Assembly (NCBI GenBank): GCA_000004695.1
Contig: CM000150.2
Span: 1,600,001 to 1,664,000, forward strand
Length of the DNA: 64,000 nucleotides
Direction of reading: 5' to 3'
DNA from: Dictyostelium discoideum
Taxonomy: Eukaryota
The notes under the pieces were generated by a model, which ran no database searches, was not told where the DNA came from, and was given only the letters and a program-made list of their open reading frames with translations. Numbering within the stretch: position 1 is the first letter of the stretch; each line of letters begins with the position of its first letter. This document shows, one piece after another, positions 719 through 41,971 of this stretch. A program made the translations under genes and the position numbers.

Positions 719-2124
719 GGATAATATTAGTAAAAAATTTATAATTAAATAAAAAAAAAATAAAATAAAAATAAAGAAAATTCATACCTTTGATATTTTT
801 CTTCTTTTGTATCTATATCATCATAAAAATTGAAAGGATCAGTGTGAATTTCAACACCTAAAACTTGATGAAACTTTGTATAATTTAAGGAATCTAAAAC
901 ATGAGTATTCCAAAAATTTTCTAAAAATGGTGGTGGATACAATGATGATGTTCTAAATATCCAACGAATTTTACCACTATATTGATCGAAATATTTAGTT
1001 GGAGTATCTTCTAAAATCTTTAAAATAAAAAATCTAACATATTCTTTTGCAGGTGAAAGTTGTAATAAATTTAATTTTAATCTATTTACTACTGGGTAAA
1101 AATTAAAATTATTCATTATATTTGATTCAAAATCATTAATATTTGATTTAATAATTGTTCTAAATTTTTCAATTTCACTACTATCATCATCACCATCTTG
1201 ATCATCATAATCATCATTATAATAATGTGATGAAATCTTTCTTTTCTTATTTCCCTTTTCAACTTGTACTTGATCCTCTTCTTCTTCTTCCTTTTCTTCT
1301 TCTTCTTCTTCTTCTTCATTATTTTTATAGTCACCACCATCTTTCTCTTGTTCCTCTTCTTTTTCTTTCTTTTCATCTTCTTGATCTTTTGAGGTTTTAA
1401 TAGTTAACCGTTTATTATATAATTTTGAATTTTCAATTGAAGATTGTAGTTGTGGTTGTGGTGGTTGTGGTGGTTGTGGTGGTTGTGGTGGTTGTGGTGG
1501 TTGTGGTTGTGGTTGTGGTGGTGGTGGTGGTGATGGTATTTCTTTTAATGCAGTATAAAAGGAACTAAAATAAACAAAACCATTTGAGAATTGATTTGGA
1601 TTGTTTTTTATAATTGCACCGATTTGAGCGAAAATATCAGTGAGTGATTTAATATATAATAGACCACTATGTGATGATATATACTCTTGAATATCATTAT
1701 AGTTGAAATAATATTTAAGCATTTCTTTATTTACTTGTTTTTTCTCTTGTAATGTATACTTAAATTTCTCTTGTAAATAATCTTGAATCTTAATTAAATT
1801 TAAAAGTGAAAATTTTATAATTTCTTGATATGATGATTTTTTATTTGGTATTTCAATATCATCATTATTATTATTATCATTATTTGTTGTTTTTTCTTCT
1901 TGACAAAGATAACATATACAAGGTATTGTTTTTAAATTTGATTTTGATTGTTTAATTAAATTGATATGGTTACTTTTTATATTGTCTTTAGCTTTTATTT
2001 TAAGCTCTCTAGAGACTTTGCGTATTTCATCAAATGATAATCCATCAAATATCCTTGCATTATAGGTGAACAATATCTTTTCGCTTGATTTAACCTTAAA
2101 TTTATGAAATGAAACTTCACTCAT
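589..2124 (-). CDS. Hypothetical protein with a (PQ/PPQ)n repeat and a long acidic Glu/Asp tract. Proposed exons are 2124..788 and 685..589.
   Basis: The 459-aa ORF starts at a real ATG (minus 2124). The track ORF reads on into AT-rich sequence. Instead a GTATGA donor follows ...EEKYQR at minus 787-786, then a 102-bp AT-rich intron with poly(A) and a TTAG acceptor. A GC-richer in-frame terminal exon at 685..589 encodes R-TLQLYQKYFEKMDSYSDIWIPSLVLEPKKEK and ends in TAA. The (GGTTGT)n repeat at 1449..1531 encodes the PQ repeats. Confidence 0.5.
1449..1531. repeat. (GGTTGT)n / (GGT)n hexanucleotide coding repeat that encodes PPQPPQ... on the minus strand
   Basis: Directly visible tandem ggttgtggtggttgtggtgg units. 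Confidence 0.9.
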
Positions 2125-2466
2125 TATGAAAGTTATGTCTCTATATCATTTCACTTCGTGTATTAAAAAAACTATTTAATATATGATTGTTTTTTTATTT
2201 TTATTTTTATCTATTTATTTTTTATTTTTTAAATATATAATAAGAAATGATGATGTAGATTATAATGAATAATAAAAAATTGAGAAGAAAAAAAAAAAAT
2301 TAAAAAATAAATTAAAAAAAAAAAAATCAAAAGATTCTCTGAAAAGGAAGGAATTCAATGAAGGTTGTTTTTTTTTTTTATTATTATTTTTATTTTAGTT
2401 TTTTTTTTAATTTTTTTTTTTTTATTTATTTATATTGTTTAATAAAAAAAACAATATAAATATAAA

Positions 2467-3407
2467 ATGTTTAATAATACAAATAAAATTATAGAAATTG
2501 AAAGAAATAATAATAAAAATATTGAAAAGGAATTATTCTATAAATATTTAAATGAAAACGAACCTATAATATTCACAAAATTTTCAACAGATTGGGAAGC
2601 ATTATCAAAATGGAATGATCCCAACTATCTCATCAATATTATTGGTAATGATCATATAGTGGATGTTAACAAATGTTCATTTGGTGGTTATTATAAAGAT
2701 ATTATCAAAATTAAATTCTCTGAATTCATATCAAAATCAATAAATAATCAATTTGATAATTTTGATTTAAATGGTATTTATTTTATTTTATTTTATTTTA
2801 TTATAAAAATAAAATTATAATAAAAATAATAAATTTATTTATTATTTAAATAGGAAATAAAATTAAAAAAGTAAATAAACCTTATTTAAGGAATTTTGAA
2901 ATGTTTGAAGATTTCCCAATTTTCGAGCAAGATATTAATTGTGATATTATATTTGACAAAGATAAACATAATTTAATTGTAAAGAGAGCATTTATTGGGA
3001 GTGTTGGATCAGCAACAAGTTTTCATATTGATACTGGTGATAATTTAGTTACTGTAATTAAAGGTTGTAAATTCATTGTAATGATATCACCAAATGATTC
3101 GAAATTTTTAGATTTTCAAAAAAGTAGAGAAATAGAAATATCTTTTAATCAAAATGATAATGATGGTATCCCATTAGAATATCATCCAGCTTTTTCAAAT
3201 TGTAAATATATTTATAAAACTTTATTAAGAAAAGGTGAATCATTATTCATACCAAATAATTGGACACATTATGTTCATAATATATCTGATCATGATGATA
3301 ACTTTAATGAAGATAATAATAATAATAATAATTGTAATAATAATAATAATTTAACAATTAGTGTTAGTTGTTGGGGAAAATCAATATATGATTTAGTTGT
3401 TGGATAA
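2467..3407 (+). CDS. JmjC (cupin-like) domain-containing protein. Proposed exons are 2467..2782 and 2854..3407.
   Basis: The two track ORFs (2467..2820 and 2901..3407) are in different frames. A GTATTT donor at 2783 and an AAATAG acceptor at 2852-2853 (phase 1) join them without stops. Motifs [17 protein letters not shown] and [24 protein letters not shown]...NNWTHYVHN are typical of the JmjC double-stranded beta-helix fold (H-x-D ... H). Confidence 0.55.
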
Positions 3408-3472
3408 AAAATAAAAAATAAAAAATTTTTAAAAAAAAGAAAAAGGGTAATATATTTATTTTTTATTTTATT

Positions 3473-4732
3473 TTATTTTTTTATTGGTATAATTGTTCTT
3501 CCAGATCTTGTTTGTAAAAGAGGAGTAGCAGTAGTGGCAGTAGTGGAATTGGTATTGGGTGTAAAAGTTGGTTGATTTCTATTAACTCTTTTTTTGTGAT
3601 TTAAATTAATTACCCAATCTAAATGTTTTAAATCATTTTCATATTTTAATTGATCTTTTTGTTGATTTGTAAGATCTTCATTTGTGATTAATCCAATCTC
3701 CATATAATATTGAAGTGTTTCAAATCTTCTATTTTCAACCATTTTTTCAATGAGGCAACTAGAGAAACCCAAAGATGGTATAAAAGTTCTTAATAATTCA
3801 AATTTACCAATACCATGTCTAATTACTCTAAAAACATCATTTTTAGTTTGAGTTGCAATGTTATCTTTTATCAAGTACTGTTTAATGCTTGGTAAAACGA
3901 TACCATTGGAAAATGTTAAAAAGTATTCCAAAGTTTGATTATCACATTCTGGTGAGAACAAAGATTTAATAATTTTATAACCTGTTAAAAATTCAATTGT
4001 TGAAGGTAATGTTGAATATTCAATATCTTTTACTAATAAAAGATCAACAATATCCAATCTTGATTTTGCAATTGCACATGACAATATCCAATCTTTACAT
4101 TTTTTAACATCTTTACCATACCACATTTTTAAGAGTGGTTGTTGTTCAGATTCATCTTTTGATTCATCAAAATTCTTTATAGTTGTTAAATTTATTAATT
4201 CAATAACATCTTCTAAAGTTATAAATTGAAATAATCTTGAAGTTGTAAGTGGAGGAAATTCAGAAACTGTTTTTGTTGCAACCAATTGTAAATGATTAAA
4301 AGCCAATTGAAATTCACCCTCTTCTATTAAAACTCTAAAATCTTTTGACCCATCAGGATGATAAAATGGATCAGAAGGATTATTATAATAATAACTTCTT
4401 TCCTCTGGGAAATAACTTTTAAATGTAGAATACTTTTCAAGTAAACTAAAATTTTGAAGTTCATAAATTGATTTAAAAATTTGAGATGCTGTATTTGAGT
4501 GTCTTTTTGATCTAATTCTACAAATAGATGAATTTTTTAAGCAAGGTAATCTTGAACTTGAAAATTCATTAAAATTTGAATTACTAAATGATCTAACAAA
4601 TAATTTTGATAATTTTCTATCTAATAAATGAAACCAATAAAATAATACAAAATTTGATACAACATTTTTTAAACTTTCATTATTAATATTACCACTATTA
4701 TTATAAGGTTGATAATTTAAAAGACCATAATA

Positions 4733-4767
<35 letters not shown>

Positions 4768-7291
4768 AATCTAAAATATAATTTGAATGATTTGGTAATA
4801 CACTTGGATAATTAATTTCATGTTCTTCATAAATTTTATTAACTTCAAGTAAATTATTTAATGTTACACCAGTTGATTGTAAGATTGAAATATATAAACT
4901 ATGGTAAATGAAAATCCAATCCTTTGAAGTTGGAAATAAATTTTCATCAATCAATTTCTTTAATATGTCTTTAGCATCAGAGAATTTGATATTTGTACTA
5001 AAATGACCATTGATATCATATTGATAATCTTTTGAACGAACATCATGAAATTCATAAATTCTTTTTTGAAAACTTAATTTATTTTTACAATTATCAATCA
5101 TTTCTAAAATTAATTTTCTATTTAAATTAACTGAATCTAATATAATTGAAAATTTTTTAAAATCAACTATATGAACTAAATGTATTAATAAATCTGATGA
5201 TAATTTAAATATTTTTTCATTAATATTATCTAAATTTGTAGTAGTTGTTGTTGTAGTTGTTGAAGTTGTTGTTGTTGTTGAAATTGGTTTAAAAATTTCT
5301 TGAAATTGTTGATTTGATTTTTCAGTATTTATTAATAATAATAATTCTAAAAGGTAACAAAATATACTTGGTGTAAAAGATTTGAAACCACTTGATTTTA
5401 AATAATTAAATAATTGATCCCTTGAATTTTCATCTTTAGTGAATTTTGAATCTTTAATATCAATATGATTATCTAATTTACCTTGATAATCGTCATATTC
5501 ATCATGTTCATCATATTCACCTTCAGCATAAACATCGGGATGGGATGAAGGTCCAACTTTTTTAAAATCATAAAATTCTGGTGAAATTCCATTTTTAAGT
5601 GGTTGATTCTCTAAAAATGATTTTTGAAATAAAATTTGAAATTTATTATTATTTTGATCACTATCAATTGAAACAACCTTATCAATACTTTCAATAGTTG
5701 AAATATCACAGTCTTTTAAAGCTCTTAAAAATGATAGATAATAAATTTCTTTATTTGAAAAATATTTATTTTTTAATAGAGATTGTAATTCAATAATTTG
5801 TTGTTCTAAATCTTCTTTTTTCTTTAATTGATTACTATTTGATGATGCTTTAGATCTAGTTGAGGAGGCAGTGTTGGTGGATGATGTTGACAATGATTCA
5901 ATTTCTTTATTTATTGATTGAATATTTGAATTTATTTGATTTTCAGATTCTTTTTGGCATTCTAATAATTTTGTATGAAAATAATTAGCAAGTTCAAAAT
6001 TTGAAAATTGTAAGAATCTTTGTCTAACATTTAAATAAATTGTAATATCATCTTTAAATTTAACTATTGAATCTTTTTTATTACTAGTATCATCAACTTT
6101 TTCTTTATTATTATCATCATCATTACCATCAACATCATTATCATCATCATCATCATCTTCTTCTTCACCATCATTGATTGTTGAAGCTGAGAATAAGTTT
6201 GTATTTTCATGTTTCTTTGTAAATTTATGAATTGATGGAACTAAATGATAGAAATCCTTATGTTGAATAATGAAATCTATAAATTCTTTTGATTTAATAA
6301 TCCATGGTATTGTATTGAATCTTTTAAACTCTAATGGATGTAAATGAGGAAGTAATAAATTGGTGATATATTGAATTGTTTCTTCATTAAAATTAAAAAA
6401 ATGTTTATTTGCAGGGAAACTATTGTATAATGTCTCTAGGAAATAATTTTTTTGTTTATATTCATTAATAACACCTGTATTCATTAAAGTTGAAATTTTT
6501 AAAAGTAAAGATGGAATGGTTGAAAATTTTAAATGACCATCTCTATTTTTATTAATAAAAACTGTATGCTCTCCAAGAATTTTTTTATCATATTTTTCAT
6601 TGGGGGTAGTTGTTGTTGTTGTAGTTGTTGATAATTTTTCACTTTCATCTGATGAATATACCTTTCCTTTGAAAATTAATTTAACTATACTACTAAACCA
6701 ACTATCACTAAATTCAATACCATTTTGGTTGAAATAAACTGTTAAGAATTTAAATAAATCATCTTCTTTAATACATTGAACTGTAATTGGTTGACCAATT
6801 AATAAATCTCTACTGATTTTTTTTTTGGGGTCTATTGGTTTTATTCTCTTGTCTTTATCTAAACCTTTGAATTGATCTTTATGTTTAATTATGAAATTTA
6901 GACAATCCAAATTTAATGATTGACTTGCATAATATGCTACCCAATATTTATTTTTTTCACACATAATTGCACCATGAGTGAATTCTATTGGTTGTTTATA
7001 TAAATTTAAATAGTTTAAATAACATCTATCATTTAGATTTGTATCACCTAATTGAATAACAATTGCTCTGATTTTCTTTTCAACAAATTCATGATCGTTT
7101 TTATTATTTAAAATCTCTTTAATTTCATCATTTCTTTTCTTTAATTCTAATTTCTTTGCTGTATTTTCACTATAAATATATGAAATTGCACCTTTAATAT
7201 ACTTTTCAATTTCTAATTCATTTTTGAATATTGGTATTGGTGTACGAATTTTATAATTTGAAAATTCTGGTATTACTTTCATTCTACCCAT
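3473..7291 (-). CDS. Large hypothetical protein (1272 aa) with poly-Thr, poly-Asn and acidic low-complexity tracts. I recognise no domain.
   Basis: Long uninterrupted ORF with a true ATG at minus 7291. Its codon usage matches neighbouring genes, and a poly(A/T)-rich promoter region lies upstream. Confidence 0.6.
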
Positions 7292-33310: not shown

Positions 33311-34303
33311 ATGGATAATAATAATAACAATATTATTAATAATAATAATAATAATAACGAAAAAAATGAAATATTATTTTGGAAAGTTTATAGAAATGTT
33401 TATTTAAATAAACAAATTTTTACTCAATTGGAGAATGACTCAATTGAATATCAAAACCCAAAAAAGTATTATATTGATAATAGAATAAAGTTTAAAAATG
33501 TAAATTCATTAGAAAGTATGGTATATAAAAGGCAATTTAATCTTTTAGAATATAAGTTAAGAAATAATGAATATATCAACCTTAAACATGGAATTAGAGC
33601 ATTTGTTGATTTTATTTATGACGATTTTAATGAAAGAATAGAATTATTTAAATTATTTTTAGAGAAATATTTAGTAGCTGTCCAAGATTATGGAAAAATT
33701 GTAAGTGATGCAATTGATCTTAAAAGATACCAAGTTTTAAAAATATTATTAAATGAACCATACTGTTTTAAAATTGATAAAAGTTGTTATCGAAAAATTT
33801 TAGTTGACTATAAAGGTAGTCATCATCATCATAAAAATGAGGATTTAATTATACAATTAGTTAATAAACACACTACAGATCAAGTTAAATTAATGGCAAT
33901 CGATCAATATGATTCAATGTATCGTAAAACTGGCAGTAAAATTCTAATTAAAATTAAAATGGAAATTTTAATTTTAATTAGAATTTTAAATGTCGCTTTA
34001 AATCTTCCACCCTCGGATAAATATAATACTCGTTATTATTATTCTTATAGTATCTTAAGTACTTTTAAAACCTTGGATACAAGAATTCACAATAATTCAA
34101 ATCATACCAATTTTAATCATCATTTACAATTAATAAATTTAAAAGATAAATTATTGAATTTAAATTTCTATAAAAATGATTATAATGACACTTTTAGTTA
34201 TTATTGGTTAAATCAACTTTCAAACTTTAAAGGTTATAATAAATTATTAATACCTTTAATTTTATTACATTTTAAAATTTATTTTATTTATAAAAATATT
34301 AAA

Positions 34304-34352
<49 letters not shown>

Positions 34353-35778
34353 TTTTACCAGAAAACATTGAAAATGAAATTAAAGAAATTTTAGGTGAAG
34401 ATTATTTAATAGATTATGAATTTAAAGAAAAACAATTATTAAGGTTATTAATAATTGAAAGTCAATCAAAATCATTATATAGATTTTATTATGAAAGATA
34501 TAGTCAAACTATTGAACAAAACTTGATTACAAAATTTAAAGTACCAATTTATGAATCATCTAATGTTTTTGATGATTTACAAATATTGGCTAAACTTGGA
34601 TTTAATGAAAATCTCAATAGAATAATTCAATGTATAAATGATTTTATTAATGATCATAATGTTAGAATTTGTAAAAACTTTCATAAATATTTTGAAATAA
34701 TAAGATTTATTAGAAATTATATATTTAATAATTTTAATTGTAATGAAAATTATAGTAAATTAATTGAAGTAATGTCAATTAATGGTGTGGGATTAACAAT
34801 ACTTTATTTACCAAGTAAATGGAATTCTTATTTAAAATATTTTACTCTTGAACAATTTAAAAATGATAAAGTTTTAATTTCAGATAAACAAGTTATAAAA
34901 TGGTTAAAATCAATTGAAAAAAAAAAGAATAAAATGTTTTCATCAGTTTTATCAGAATATTATAAAAAAAGAAGAAATAATTTAATAGAGTTTAGTTGTA
35001 ATGAAATTGCTCAATATGCAATCAAAAAATTAGAGATTGGTAATTTTTCAAATAAATTCCCACCAATTAAATTTGATATTATCAAATGGTCAACCATTGA
35101 AAATCAAAATCCAATTTCAAATATTATTAATGAACTTTCTTTTCAAAATTACAACATTTTAATTGAATCTGATCAAGATAATAATAATATTGATATTGAT
35201 ATTGTTAAAAATAAAAAGAAAACAAATTTTATTATTCAATTAAATTATAACCTTTATAAATTAATTAATAATGATAATTATTCAGAAATTCGTAAATTTT
35301 TAATTCAAAATTTAATTAAAAGAATTTTAAAAATTAATGGTGGTAATGCTTTAAATCAAATATTTAAAACTACAAGTTTTAAAGATACTTTACAAAATTA
35401 TCCATTCACATTTTTTGAAACATTTATAAACTCTTTTAATAACTTTGAAATTGAAAATGTTATAATGTTTTTAAATAGTGGAATTGATTTCATAAAATAT
35501 CAATATGATTTTCAACTAGTTTGGAATAAAAAAGTCGATCAAGTTATAGACATTTACAAAAAAAAATATTCATTTGGTTTTAATTACACAAATATAATAA
35601 ATAATATTAAAAGTGAAGTGGTTTTAAATTTTATTAACTATTGGTTAACTCAAGATAAAATTCCATTCAATTCTGAAATTAATAAATTAATAGTAAATCA
35701 TTTATTTAAAAAGTTAATTCAAACTCAAGGTATTACAATTTATCAAGTTTCAAAAATTAGAAATTTAATATTAAATTT

Positions 35779-35816
<38 letters not shown>

Positions 35817-36454
35817 TACCAAATAATAATGATAAAATAATATTTTTAGAAGAAACAAATTTTCATACTTTTTTTTATCTTTATAATAAGACACCAAAGA
35901 TTTCACATTATATAGAGAGTACAGAGTATTCAATTTTTAATTTAAATTCAAATTCAGATGCAAGTTTATTTGATTTTCAATTTATTTATAAGGAATCATT
36001 TGAAAGATTAATTGAAATTTTAATGGAAAAGGATAATGGTAATGAGCCTACCAATAAAAAGGTAAATAATCAACTATTATACTTTTTAGTGATAAGAAGA
36101 ATTGATTTGTTTTTTAATCACCTTCAAACTATTAGAAAATTGGGATTGAATTTTAGATTTAGTAAATATTCAGAATTGATAAAAATTATTCAACATCAAC
36201 AATTTAGTGGAAATTCAAATGATTCTTTAAAAACTTTTATTAATGAATATAGATTAACAAATTCTAATATCACTGAACAATCAATTGCATCACAACTCTT
36301 AATTGAATCAGTAAAATTAAATAGTAAAGAAGAAATTATTAATTTCATTATTGAAAACTATCAACCAGAAAAAATAACTCTTCCATCTTCAACCATTGAT
36401 AATCCTTTAGTTCAAAAAATTTTAAAAAATTATCCAAATTTGTTGAAGTTTTAA
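33311..36454 (+). CDS. Large Asn/Ile-rich hypothetical protein (1047 aa), no recognisable domain
   Basis: Uninterrupted ORF with a real ATG. It contains poly-Asn, poly-Ser and His runs typical of Dictyostelium low-complexity proteins. Confidence 0.55.
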
Positions 36455-37374: not shown

Positions 37375-37504
37375 ATGAAATGTATATCAAATATAACATC
37401 AAGTAGCAGAAAACAAAAATTTTTAATTTTATTTATCCTTGTTGCAAGTTCTATATTGTTGATGTTTTATGATGAATTTAGTTTTATAACAGTATTTAAT
37501 AAAG

Positions 37505-37535
<31 letters not shown>

Positions 37536-39913
37536 CTATAGAACAAATCAATTTAAAGATAACGATAATATTTTTTACACTAATCGAATTTTAGAAGAAA
37601 CTAGGAATTCAGATGTTGTCATTTTTCTATGGGATCCATCATCAGAACGCGATGATTGGACAGGAATTTTAAAATCTAATAATTTAGTAACACAACAACA
37701 AATTGATGATTATAATAATAAAAAATCTTTATTTACTTCAACAACATCAACAACTTCTCATCCTTATACTAGTAGTAGAAGTAGTACTAGTACTAGTAGT
37801 AGAAGTAGTACTAGTACTAGTAGTAGAAGTAGTACTAGTGGAGGTAGAAGTAGTAGTGGAGGTAGTAGTACTAGTAGTGGAGGTAGTAGTACTAGTAGTG
37901 GAAGTAGTAGTACAACTAGTAGTAGAGGTAGTAGTACCACTAGTAGAAGTAGTAGTACTACTGGTATTAGAGGTGGTAGTAGTACAACTCAACAAACTGA
38001 AGTGGAAGCAGCAGCAGCAGTATCAGGTCAATTATCAATAGATTTTAATCAAAAATCACTATCAATAAAATTAAATGAAGTATTTAATGAAAAGAATAAA
38101 TGTTCATGTTCATGTAGATTTACAAATCTTCAAGAAGAGATTGTTGAGTCACATTTAATTTTATTTGATCCAGTTTATTTACATAAAGATAATTGGAAGA
38201 GATCACCATTAAAGTTACCAGAGAAACATTCACATCAAAAGTTTGGTTTATTTCATTATAACTCAAAGAGTCAATATTCAATACTCTCTAATAAACCATA
38301 TAATAACTTGATGGATATTGATATCTCTTACCTAAATAGTGATCATAATCTTGATATCACTTTAGCATGTCCACCCAATTCATCTTTTACCCTTGACGAC
38401 ACTTCAAAATTATTATTAAAAAAACACAAAGATTGGGATAAACGTAATAATTCTGCAATTTTCATTTCTTCAAATTGCGTAGATGGTTTATCATTATCAA
38501 GAACTGTATGTTTTTTTAAAAAAAAACAAATAATAACAATATAATAATATTAATTTATTTTTTTTTTTTTTTTATGTGATTTTTTAGAATTTAGTAAAAG
38601 AATTATCAAAAATTATTAAAATTGAATCATTAGGCAATTGTTTGAATGATAATACAGTTAATATTAAAAGTAAAGAAGAATTAGGATCAATTTATTCAAG
38701 AATTGAGTATAATATGGAAATTTATAAGAAAGCGAAATTTGTAATTTGTTTTGAGAATGAAAATTCAACAAACTATGTAACAGAGAAAGTTTATACTGCT
38801 TTATATGCTGGTGCAATACCAATTTGGATGGGTGCTAAAAATATTGATCAATATGTACCAACGGGTTCGATTATCAATGGAAATGAATTTAATAATATTA
38901 ATGAAATTGGTGAACATATAAAATCAATAATAGATGGTAAAATTGATTATAAAAGATATTTCAAATGGAAAGATGATAATGATAATCAATCATTAGAGAG
39001 TAAAGTTATTGATAAATTAAAACGTTGTATTAATACAGTTGATATGAAATGTAAAATTTGTGAGACCATTTATAAATCGATTGAGCAATCTGATAGGGAT
39101 TATCTATCATCAACTGTTGCTGCAAAGAATTATCATTATGTTTCAAACAATATTGGATATTATACACCCCAATTTGTGTCAATGAAAGGATTGGGTGACC
39201 ATATCTTTGTCAATAGGAATGAAGATACTTGTAAGAATTGTTTTAATCTTGATGATCATTATACCCTAATGGCATGGGTCAAGCCATCAACATTCTCTGA
39301 TCAGAGAATTATTGATAAGAATCATGCGGGAACAATTAGTGGATACAATTTCGATATTCAAAAGACATCAGGTGGTCGTGGTGTGGCTAGACTATGTGCG
39401 GGTACAGCATGTTTTGAATCCTTCAAGAGTATACCCAACGATTTATGGTCACATGTTGCTGTGGTGTTTAGTTGTAATAATTTAGATGTTCAAAAGAATC
39501 GTGTCACTTTTTATATAAATGGTGTGTTTAATGCAGAGTTTGATAATTTTAAACCAACTAAAATTAATGACTTCCCTTTGGTAATTGGTAAATCTGGTAA
39601 AAAAACTGAATCAACAAGTTATCATGGTATGATTGATGATATAATGATCTTTAATATCTCTCTAACCTCTGATGATATCAAATATGTACTCTCTTCAAAA
39701 CCAAATCTTTCCACCTTTAAATTTGCAAATGATCTTCAACTCTTTTATGATTTCGATTATAATCCAAATAATCCAAAATCACATGATCGTAATATAGTTC
39801 GTGATAAATCAATTTATAAAAATGATGGTACCTTTGCTAGTGGTTCAAGTGATGACTATTCTGAAAAAATAACTTCAATAAGTAAAGAAATATCTTTTAA
39901 TAAAAAATTATAA
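37375..39913 (+). CDS. Type II membrane alpha-1,3-fucosyltransferase (GT10 family) with a Ser/Thr-rich stem and a C-terminal concanavalin A-like / laminin-G-like domain. Proposed exons are 37375..38505 and 38588..39913.
   Basis: N-terminal signal anchor KFLILFILVASSILLMFY, then an (SSRSSTSTS)n stem coded by (AGT)n. A GTATGT donor lies at 38506 and a TTTTAG acceptor at 38586-38587 (phase 0). The GT10 motif FVICFENENSTNYVTEKVYTALYAGAIPIWMG corresponds to the FucT motif FxxxFENSxxxxYxTEKxxxAxxxGxVPV. The C-terminal ~250 aa (DDHYTLMAWVKPSTF ... WSHVAVVF ... VTFYINGV ... FPLVIGKSG ... YHGMIDDIMIFN) has the LamG/pentraxin beta-sandwich pattern. Confidence 0.65.
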
Positions 39914-40027: not shown

Positions 40028-40576
40028 TTATATTTGTAATTTTAATTTTTCAATTATTTTTAAAGATTCATCTATGTGAGAAGTTGAACTAAGTAAACCA
40101 TCATGTATACCTGCTATAATACCATGTTTATCAATGATGAATGTTTTTCTACCAGGTAATAATATACCGTTAACACCATATAATTTAGCTAATTTACTAT
40201 GTTTATCTGTCAATAATGTGAATGGTAATGAATATTTTGAAACGAATGATTTATGACTATCTTCACCATCACTACTAACCCCGATTACTTCTGCACCGGC
40301 TTCTATAAATTTTTGATATTTATCTCTAAATTCACAACTCTCTATAAAAGTATGTAAGAATGTTGTTATTTTATTAGTATCAATGAATGTTAATGAGGTA
40401 TTGTAATAAATAAATTAAATATTACCTTTTGTGCATACTGGACTATTATCTTTTGGATAAAAGTATAAAACGATTGGTTGACTCTTATCTTTAAATTCTT
40501 TGAGTGTAACTGTTTGACCTAAATAATTTTTAGCTTCAAAATCTGGTGCAACATTTCCAACTTTTAATTTTGTCAT
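40028..40576 (-). CDS. Peroxiredoxin Q / BCP-type thiol peroxidase (atypical 2-Cys, CxxxxC). Proposed exons are 40576..40426 and 40341..40028.
   Basis: Exon 1 encodes MTKLKVGNVAPDFEAKNYLGQTVTLKEFKDKSQPIVLYFYPKDNSPVCTK. A GGTAAT donor follows at minus 40425 and a TTATAG acceptor at 40343-40342 (phase 1), leading into ESCEFRDKYQKFIEAGAEVIGVSSD... The signature YFYPKDxTPxCTxExCxFRD, with peroxidatic and resolving Cys five residues apart, is diagnostic of the BCP/PrxQ subfamily. The track shows only the last 61 aa. Confidence 0.75.
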
Positions 40577-41106: not shown

Positions 41107-41971
41107 TTAATTTCCTTCGAAAAAATATTGAGATGGGCTATATGTTTGAGATCTATTTAAAATTTCTTTATCTTTATACATTTTTGGTAACATGAAAGAT
41201 GGATTCCAAGTTTTTTGTAATTCTGTAACGTCTGAAGAAACTTGATATTTTCCCTTTGATTCATAGGGTCTATTTTCTATACCGTCAGTATTAAAGAAAA
41301 CGATTTGTGCTAAACGTCTACCCACTACTAATGGAATTGAATAGTGTCTACTATTATTAGTGATCTCCATTGTCCATCTACTAACATAACCGACATCTCC
41401 CATACCTGCACATTTACAAACCTAAGTATATATATATAAATATATATAAATAATAATATTAGTATTTAAATAAAATACTAATATTATTATTATATATAAT
41501 AATAATAATAATAATTACTTCAATAAAATTTCTACCCATTGAAGATCTTGCTTTCATCATTGTTGTTACAGTTTTATTACCACCAATAAATTCATTTGTG
41601 TGAGCTAAAATTGTTTCTTTAGGTTTAATCCAAATGATTAATTCGTCATCGGCTATATTGTCTAATTTAATACCAGACCTTGCTGACCATGATGCATGAG
41701 TCTCTGCTTTTTTAAATGATCCCCAAACTCTATCAACCATTTCTTCAGAGTATGGATTATAAACACCTGCTCCTGATTCTGGCTCGGTTTCTCTATAATA
41801 ATAAGGTCCAAGTGTGACGTCATAAGATGATGTTGATAAATTGTCTCTAACAAATGGTGTTATAACAACTGTACCAATTTCCATATGTCTTAATATTGCT
41901 TTATCTGATAATAATGAAAATTCTTGTTTTTTACTATCATTATTATCATTATTATTTGTTGGTTCGTTCAT
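41107..41971 (-). CDS. dCTP deaminase-like protein (dUTPase superfamily, bacterial Dcd type). Proposed exons are 41971..41519 and 41421..41107.
   Basis: A GTAATT donor follows ...GRNFIE at minus 41518, then a 97-bp AT-rich intron and a CTTAG acceptor at 41423-41422 (phase 0). The exon-1 region ILRHMEIGTVVITPFVRDNLSTSSYDVTLG is similar to Dcd IEAWLDEGRLSINP...ATVDVRLG. Exon 2 (CKCAGMGDVGYVSRWTMEI...GRRLAQIVFF) is similar to the Dcd C-terminal region HRIDPGWSG...LRPGMLIGALSF. Confidence 0.55.

Follow-up and report, generated by a model that had tools for sequence, protein, structure and literature searches.

A GT10 fucosyltransferase homologue of Dictyostelium discoideum with a C-terminal LamG-like domain and no glutamate at the catalytic-base position

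Background

The gene fut11 of Dictyostelium discoideum raises the question of how a homologue of the GT10 fucosyltransferases might work, and on what kind of acceptor, when it carries a LamG domain at its C-terminus and has no glutamate at the catalytic-base site. The gene (DDB_G0268190) occupies positions 37375-39913 of the 64,000-nucleotide stretch of DNA analysed here, which is called the window (assembly GCA_000004695.1, contig CM000150.2, positions 1,600,001 to 1,664,000). Coordinates refer to the window unless another sequence is named, all features of fut11 lie on its forward (+) strand, and residue numbers refer to the spliced product of 818 amino acids, which was identical over its full length to the D. 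discoideum AX4 protein XP_647625.1 (EAL73548.1; UniProt Q55FA8), recorded as 'hypothetical protein DDB_G0268190'.

A preliminary description of the window, made from the letters of the sequence, had proposed a canonical alpha-1,3-fucosyltransferase (FucT) fused to a LamG or concanavalin A-like domain, and had considered this architecture unusual. The fusion is borne out below; the claim of rarity is not. The combination of GT10 and LamG in fut11 is not new, being recorded in the dictyBase product name and in the precomputed Pfam annotation of the fut11 orthologues, and it belongs to a whole family spread across the Amoebozoa; as first stated, the finding goes no further than the annotation already available. 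Nor are appended binding modules new among glycosyltransferases, as the ricin-type lectin domains of GALNTs illustrate. The supplementary tables of a comparative genomic study of D. discoideum and D. purpureum from 2011 list the gene as fut11, 'GT Family 10, candidate 3/4-FucT', within a fut family of 11 genes in D. discoideum and five in D. purpureum (PMC3188802). The searchable literature contained no paper that named DDB_G0268190 in its main text, or that dealt with the function of Dictyostelium fut11 or with a GT10 and Laminin_G fusion, and no mention of the missing glutamate was found there. The residual interest of the locus is that the catalytic glutamate is missing although the acceptor domain and LamG are under strong purifying selection.

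A GT10 homologue without the canonical catalytic base

Comparison with Pfam matched both halves of the product far beyond chance. Glyco_transf_10 (PF00852) covered residues 354-543, scoring 101.4 bits (cut-off 23.9, E = 6.2e-29), and Laminin_G_3 (PF13385) covered residues 596-742 (39242-39682), scoring 72.9 bits (cut-off 27.6, E = 4.2e-20). The first match delimits the GT10 C-terminal domain (38434..39085, interrupted by the intron), which in this family binds guanosine diphosphate (GDP)-fucose. Its donor-side motifs were intact, and invariant or nearly so across the family: the SNC...R motif was SSNCVDGLSLSR (residues 365-376, 38467-38502), and the FxxxFEN....Y.TEK motif was FVICFENENSTNYVTEK (residues 428-444), the beginning of the longer FucT motif FVICFENENSTNYVTEKVYTALYAGAIPIWMG (residues 428-459, 38738-38833). 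The string quoted in the preliminary description, FENENSTNYVTEKVYTALYAGAIPIWMG, corresponds to residues 432-459 (38750-38833). Profile searches of the PDB matched fut11 to 7yro, 9s6a, 8d0o, 5zoi and 2nzw; the donor motifs aligned with those of FUT9, AtFUT11, mango FUT13 and the FucT of H. pylori. The C-terminal domain also includes a CxxC element at 39050-39061.

The acceptor side differed. The FUT9 segment QKWIWMNLES, which includes Glu137, paired without gaps with QKFGLFHYNS of fut11, both in a profile of the whole family and in a profile of the fut11-like clade only, and this set Asn296 (codon 38260..38262) opposite the glutamate. A profile of the N-terminal domain only aligned the Asn296 column with chain residue 71 of 9s6a, that is, Glu158 of AtFUT11. 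Both placements were verified: the offset of +87 between the 9s6a chain and AtFUT11 numbering on Cys124 and Cys128, and the position of FUT9 Glu137 against the Leu136, Glu137 and His141 given in a review. According to that review, Glu137 is the likely catalytic base of FUT9 and is conserved in all alpha1,3/4-FUT isoenzymes; in AtFUT11, the E158A substitution completely abolished activity.

The same column was occupied by N, N, K, T, N, H and H in seven dictyostelid fut11 orthologues and by H in the relatives from Ceratiomyxa and Cavostelium, while glutamate was present in the fut10-like clade, in Thecamoeba and in most environmental members. A histidine at position 294 or 296 was found in nine of the 11 family members that lack the glutamate. 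The term 'canonical', as previously applied to fut11, is thus apt for the donor-side motifs and fails at the catalytic base. By sequence fut11 is a member of GT10; canonical catalytic competence is not supported. One environmental, fut11-like sequence of 634 residues (P0031) had lost the base glutamate and also showed degraded donor motifs (DDC for SNC, FEEDI for FENxN), which suggests drift of some fut11-clade members to non-catalytic forms.

Selective constraint

Ratios of nonsynonymous to synonymous substitution (dN/dS) were calculated by the Nei-Gojobori method for two pairs, D. discoideum with D. cf. discoideum and D. discoideum with D. firmibasis, and are given here in that order. The GT10 N-terminal domain (0.095 and 0.095) and the LamG core (0.068 and 0.094) were the most constrained parts of fut11, the LamG core foremost. 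Values were higher for the GT10 C-terminal domain (0.31 and 0.24) and for the C-terminal tail of LamG (0.17 and 0.27), and highest for a Ser/Thr-rich insertion in the N-terminal domain (0.98 and 0.75). Among more distant dictyostelids, LamG retained 51-57% identity, against 34-50% for the catalytic domains. With a dN/dS of 0.095, the acceptor domain is thus free of decay, although the glutamate is missing. A decaying pseudoenzyme was considered as an explanation of the locus and is not supported by these ratios.

The C-terminal LamG domain

The strings cited in the preliminary description as typical of a LamG fold were all present in the fut11 product, and structure prediction agreed with the Pfam match. 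An AlphaFold2 model of residues 560-818 alone, built with 44 family sequences, had a mean predicted local distance difference test score (pLDDT) of 92.0 and a predicted template modelling score of 0.91, and took the form of a curved, two-sheet jelly-roll. The possibility that the C-terminal region would lack a significant LamG match or fold was therefore not upheld. The LamG/pentraxin-like jelly-roll core comprises residues 571-745 (39167..39691). It is preceded by an unconserved linker at residues 546-570 (39092..39166), which was 0-42% identical among homologues and had low pLDDT in a full-length model, and it is followed by a C-terminal extension at residues 746-818 (39692..39910), modelled as strands of the same compact domain.

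The nearest solved structure to the LamG model was 4dqa, a 'putative carbohydrate binding protein' of Bacteroides, with a similarity score of 23.1 over 214 aligned residues. The LamG-like domain of dimethylformamidase (22.7), the LG domain of PAPP-A (21.6) and the pentraxins (about 20) followed; the sialic-acid-binding modules of CBM40 (about 15) and the LG domains of neurexin and laminin (about 14) were more distant. These neighbours mix glycan binders, such as CBM40 and domain 4 of AbnA, with protein binders, such as the PAPP-A LG and neurexin LNS domains. Carbohydrate binding by the LamG domain of fut11 would be plausible.

The order of elements within the domain was not that of the usual Laminin_G_3 unit. 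There, a motif of the type 'LvaYWxFdE..D.S..gnhG' lies N-terminal to the core; in fut11, the motif 'LxLYYDFD...D.S..N.G' was found in residues 746-818 instead, where pLDDT was high in the domain-only model. In bacterial Laminin_G_3 proteins, 37 of 72 cases had a motif of this type just upstream of the first core, and nine of 49 had one downstream of the last; in the fused family it was never upstream of the core (none of 42). This suggests a circular permutation of the fused LamG, with a shift of register, compared with the bacterial unit. The suggestion is made because of these motif-order statistics; a profile of the tail only gave no significant match in the PDB, the best relevant ones being dimethylformamidase and an acylase at an E of about 1. 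The same C-terminal order may be shared by 4dqa.

The nearest LamG relatives outside the family were repeats in giant bacterial proteins, at 27-30% identity, and hint at a bacterial origin of the module. Nine positions were occupied by the same residue in at least 80% of fused proteins and in fewer than 25% of 166 bacterial Laminin_G_3 units: D615, R617, D620, D633, R645, C647, C652, D692 (Asn in D. discoideum) and K810. Such family-specific residues would fit a dedicated binding or docking surface.

Phylogenetic range of the fusion

When exon 2 was searched exhaustively with HMMER against 1.84 billion cluster representatives, 31 matches at E<=1e-30 were returned, and about 25 further representatives aligned in one stretch across both domains; each of 28 aligned family members contained both Pfam domains. 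The search for the same fusion in other FucTs, which the preliminary description had proposed, revealed a family in the Amoebozoa. Within Dictyostelia, the fusion was present in D. firmibasis, D. purpureum, Polysphondylium violaceum, Acytostelium, Cavenderia, Heterostelium and Synstelium; among other Amoebozoa, transcriptomes of Ceratiomyxa, Cavostelium and Thecamoeba encoded both domains on a complete open reading frame (ORF), and several family sequences were environmental. Two paralogous clades were recognized, the fut11 clade and a second that includes P0062 of D. purpureum, the listed orthologue of D. discoideum fut10.

No LamG domain occurred in the same gene as GT10 at any of 80 viral GT10 loci. 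A scan of bacteria and archaea with patterns from the family found 80 loci, all of which encoded LamG and no GT10; being limited to those patterns, the scan does not prove absence. Word-indexed protein searches, whether with the LamG region alone or with the family profile, gave almost no useful matches, as low-complexity words dominated. Because its two clades extend across the Amoebozoa and neither the viral nor the prokaryotic scan returned it, the fusion is, judged from these sequences and within the reach of the scans, old, duplicated and amoebozoan.

Two further observations concern the arrangement of these domains. In one giant-virus metagenome-assembled genome (L002, IMGVR_UViG_GVMAG-S-1041346-184_000001, 1479-5770), GT10 and LamG were neighbours without being fused: a GT10 gene at 2695-3654 (PF00852, E = 2e-16) was flanked on the same strand by three separate genes for membrane-anchored Laminin_G_3 proteins (E = 7e-9, 2e-10 and 4e-11), an arrangement that recalls the fusion of the amoebozoans. 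The fut11-like Cavenderia fasciculata protein DFA_04816 (P0012) is annotated as 1564 residues long, with its GT10-LamG part at about 1137-1544; either it is a multidomain protein of much greater size or it results from a further merging of gene models.

Gene structure and the N-terminal region

Two ORFs, 37375-38544 and 38642-39913, both on the + strand, are bridged by the sole intron of fut11 (38506..38587). Exon 1 (37375..38505, residues 1-377) was defined by its ORF, by the donor GTATGT from 38506 and by identity to the known product. The intron is 82 nucleotides long (GTATGT...TTTTAG), has 8.5% GC and is in phase 0. Exon 2 (38588..39913, residues 378-818 and a TAA stop) contains the FucT motif and the entire LamG domain within a single stop-free stretch, and the fusion is therefore independent of the intron call. 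One intron of the form GTATGT..AG was likewise found in D. cf. discoideum (69 nucleotides) and in D. firmibasis (73 nucleotides), and its excision gave the annotated proteins exactly.

The preliminary description had placed a type II anchor ahead of the catalytic region, and this was upheld: the only strong hydrophobic segment was a signal-anchor at residues 14-32, QKFLILFILVASSILLMFY (37414..37470), with a mean Kyte-Doolittle value of 2.05 over 19 residues, falling within a helix at residues 12-36 of the full-length model. The (SSRSST)n tract had been read as the stem that follows this anchor, and here the evidence pointed elsewhere. Of the conserved elements in the GT10 N-terminal domain, the first, DVVIFLWDPSSERDDWTGILK (residues 80-100, 37612..37674), was present in all orthologues and lies upstream of the tract; it contains a strand at residues 81-86 in the full-length model. 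Pfam Glyco_tran_10_N did not match fut11 itself, but matched 11 of the 28 aligned family members, and in members that match from the first positions of that model its start maps to fut11 residues 80-82. A plain stem was ruled out on this ground, and the tract falls inside the domain, after its first conserved strand. The rest of this acceptor-side domain occupies residues 242-353 (38098..38433), of which residues 243-353 could be aligned through the family profiles to FUT9 (8d0o) and AtFUT11 (9s6a).

The tract itself forms a low-complexity insertion at residues 118-206 (37726..37992), recognized by its composition (43 S, 21 T, 11 G and 7 R among 89 residues), by an imperfect tandem DNA repeat that encodes it (37767-37985) and by comparison with orthologues, in which the insertion is absent or short. 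It is embedded in a larger unconserved loop, at about residues 105-241, and W86 and C243 are 157 residues apart in fut11; the distance is 41-83 residues among the orthologues of other dictyostelids and, for most of the family, 26-40. By these comparisons the tract is a species-specific insertion in a loop of the catalytic N-terminal domain, in near-neutral evolution.

The window has a GC content of about 20%, and its coding sequences include tracts of poly-Asn, both of them typical of Dictyostelium. Both synteny and the single-intron structure of fut11 were retained in the genomes of D. cf. discoideum and D. firmibasis, with an ORF of about 1050 residues upstream and, on the opposite strand downstream, AhpC/TSA-Redoxin and dCTP-deaminase-like genes. 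In D. discoideum, the upstream neighbour was an Asn-rich ORF of 1047 residues (33311-36454, +) without a match in Pfam, and a gene of 1057 residues lies at the same place in D. firmibasis. Downstream, a short ORF (40028-40213, -) matched the C-terminal end of AhpC/TSA; its counterpart in D. cf. discoideum is a Redoxin/AhpC-TSA gene of 154 residues, situated directly downstream of fut11 on the opposite strand, and the short ORF probably represents a single exon of a gene for a peroxiredoxin-like protein. Beyond it lies a two-exon dCTP-deaminase-like gene (41107-41971, -; PF22769). A predicted protein of 437 residues in one EukProt gene set (P0010) joins the LamG part of a fut11 orthologue to this neighbour (Laminin_G_3 and DCD); it is an artefact of gene prediction that also displays the conserved synteny.

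Discussion

By its arrangement fut11, a homologue of Golgi-type fucosyltransferases, would belong to the type II membrane proteins of the secretory pathway. A short cytoplasmic tail would precede the signal anchor, and a poly-Asn stem would follow it; next come a GT10 module of GT-B fold, whose acceptor domain is split by the fast-evolving Ser/Thr loop, a flexible linker (about 25 residues) and a jelly-roll of LamG/pentraxin type (about 245 residues). Conserved cysteines (C243/C247, C524/C532/C535 and C647/C652) and several N-glycosylation sequons would place these domains in the lumen. Since every donor-side motif is kept in the GT10 C-terminal domain, fut11 most likely still binds GDP-fucose. 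The tethered LamG would bind part of the acceptor, whether a glycan or the surface of a glycoprotein, thereby choosing the substrate or presenting it to the catalytic cleft; the acceptor would probably be neither of the Lewis type nor core N-acetylglucosamine (GlcNAc). By analogy with other transferases, LamG most likely serves in this way as an acceptor-recognition exosite on a GT10 enzyme with non-canonical chemistry, a reading whose chances we put at about even. Counted in its favour were the low dN/dS of the LamG core and the acceptor domain, the higher identity of LamG than of the catalytic domains among distant dictyostelids, the family-specific polar residues of LamG and the retention of the fusion in two paralogous clades. 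The giant-virus locus described above, the only one of 80 viral GT10 loci with a GT10 gene beside LamG genes, was also counted in favour of this reading.

The transfer step could not be canonical, because the base glutamate is replaced by Asn296 and the position varies among orthologues. A neighbouring histidine at 294 or 296 might act as a substitute base, and these two positions would face the same way if the segment is a beta-strand; alternatively, transfer might follow a base-independent route like that of POFUT1. It seems possible, although somewhat short of probable, that the fut11 clade is a mechanistically distinct subclass of GT10 without the glutamate base but with a strongly constrained donor site and acceptor domain, either transferring fucose, by a histidine or base-free mechanism, to an unconventional acceptor picked out by LamG or persisting as a conserved, non-catalytic protein that binds GDP-fucose or glycans. 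If so, either outcome would be new for GT10.

Several points weigh against an exosite on an active enzyme. LamG and pentraxin folds also bind proteins, lipids and steroids, so the label 'lectin' is not established, and the full-length model (pLDDT 55.7) is not good enough to show where LamG sits with respect to the active site. Position 296 varies between N, K, T and H among orthologues, which argues against that residue being itself catalytic, and the loss of an essential glutamate is also to be expected of a non-catalytic protein. A literature search found no biochemical, genetic or localisation data on fut11, and a 2025 paper on N-glycomics states that no Dictyostelium homologue of GT10 has a proven biochemical function.

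The strongest competitor, which we nevertheless regard as rather unlikely, is that catalysis has been lost altogether and LamG has become the main module of a pseudo-glycosyltransferase, acting, for example, as a lumenal binder of GDP-fucose or glycans, as a chaperone or cargo receptor, or as the partner or regulator of an active fut paralogue. It would account for the lack of glutamate at the base position in all seven dictyostelid orthologues and in the nearest relatives from Ceratiomyxa and Cavostelium, with a replacement that varies; for the position of LamG as the most constrained region; and for the degraded donor motifs of P0031. The inactivity of AtFUT11 E158A, and the conservation of Glu137 in all alpha1,3/4-FUT isoenzymes noted in the review, point the same way. 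However, the donor motifs of fut11 itself are intact, and purifying selection on the N-terminal domain (0.095) is as strong as on LamG, which would be unexpected if the positioning of an acceptor were irrelevant. Moreover, POFUT1 documents that fucose can be transferred without a base, and a histidine is available at 294 or 296 in most members that lack the glutamate.

An ordinary, active alpha1,3/4-fucosyltransferase, in which LamG contributes to folding, oligomerisation, Golgi retention or quality control and not to targeting, is unlikely. Many Golgi glycosyltransferases do have non-catalytic regions for retention or oligomerisation, the pentraxin-like folds among the top structural neighbours of LamG are oligomeric, and 'candidate 3/4-FucT' is how the gene is annotated. 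Against this, the absence of the canonical base makes an 'ordinary' enzyme improbable; the family-specific charged residues, together with a dN/dS of 0.07-0.09 for LamG, indicate more than a passive scaffold; and an unconserved, probably flexible linker is more in keeping with a tethered binding module than with a rigid brace.

That the fusion is an artefact of annotation or assembly, merging neighbouring FucT and LamG genes, is scarcely credible: chimaeric gene models do occur nearby (P0010), and GT10 and LamG genes are separate in the giant-virus genome, but the continuous ORF 38642-39913 and the identity to XP_647625.1 rule out separate genes or an unspliced transcript, and the same architecture recurs in independent genomes and on complete transcriptome ORFs, with synteny and intron structure kept in two other Dictyostelium genomes.

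An active fut11 would be a GT10 enzyme without the canonical base, bearing on mechanism and on the prediction of activity from sequence; an inactive one would be a conserved pseudo-glycosyltransferase in a genetically tractable organism. We know of no EMI-like acceptor in Dictyostelium. Core alpha1,3-fucose is well documented in Dictyostelium N-glycans, yet none of the 11 GT10 genes has an assigned activity.

Comparison with known systems

The closest comparisons are with human FUT9 and Arabidopsis AtFUT11 (FucTA), GT10 alpha1,3-fucosyltransferases of characterised structure. These share with fut11 the type II anchor, the C-terminal domain motifs SNC..R, FxxxFEN...Y(V/I)TEK and, downstream, (A/S)G(A/S)(I/V)P, and an alignable N-terminal domain that includes the C..C..T and Q(K)W/F elements; the C-terminal CxxC of fut11 is common to the plant enzymes. 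The differences are Asn296 in place of Glu137 (FUT9) or Glu158 (AtFUT11), an inserted loop of roughly 140 residues, Ser/Thr tract included, behind the first strand of the N-terminal domain, and a LamG of about 245 residues after the CxxC helix. Structures resembling LamG, namely BACOVA_03559 (4dqa), PAPP-A LG, the pentraxins and CBM40, are 10-18% identical to it in sequence and none is attached to a glycosyltransferase; unlike them, the fused family has a conserved set peculiar to itself (D615, R617, D620, D633, R645, C647/C652 and K810).

For the chemistry, POFUT1 (GT65) provides a model: according to a review, it is an inverting, GDP-fucose-dependent GT-B enzyme that works without an acidic base, through an asparagine shuttle and the beta-phosphate. 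For the acceptor, FUT10 and FUT11 (POFUT3 and POFUT4) are GT10 protein O-fucosyltransferases with divergent acceptor motifs, whose acceptors are unlike N-acetyllactosamine or core GlcNAc. The exosite has precedents too. Within GT10, AtFUT11 recognizes its N-glycan by the N-terminal subdomain. The polypeptide GalNAc-transferases (GALNTs, GT27) carry a C-terminal ricin-type lectin domain on a linker, which serves acceptor recognition. In FUT8, a GT23 enzyme with an SH3 domain, the SH3 is part of the exosite for the alpha1,3 arm of the N-glycan (review). Both differ from fut11 in belonging to other glycosyltransferase families, the GALNTs also being of GT-A fold, and in using a beta-trefoil or an SH3 domain in place of a LamG jelly-roll. 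If the exosite reading is true, fut11 would be a further independent case, beside the GALNTs and FUT8, of an appended domain that steers a glycosyltransferase.

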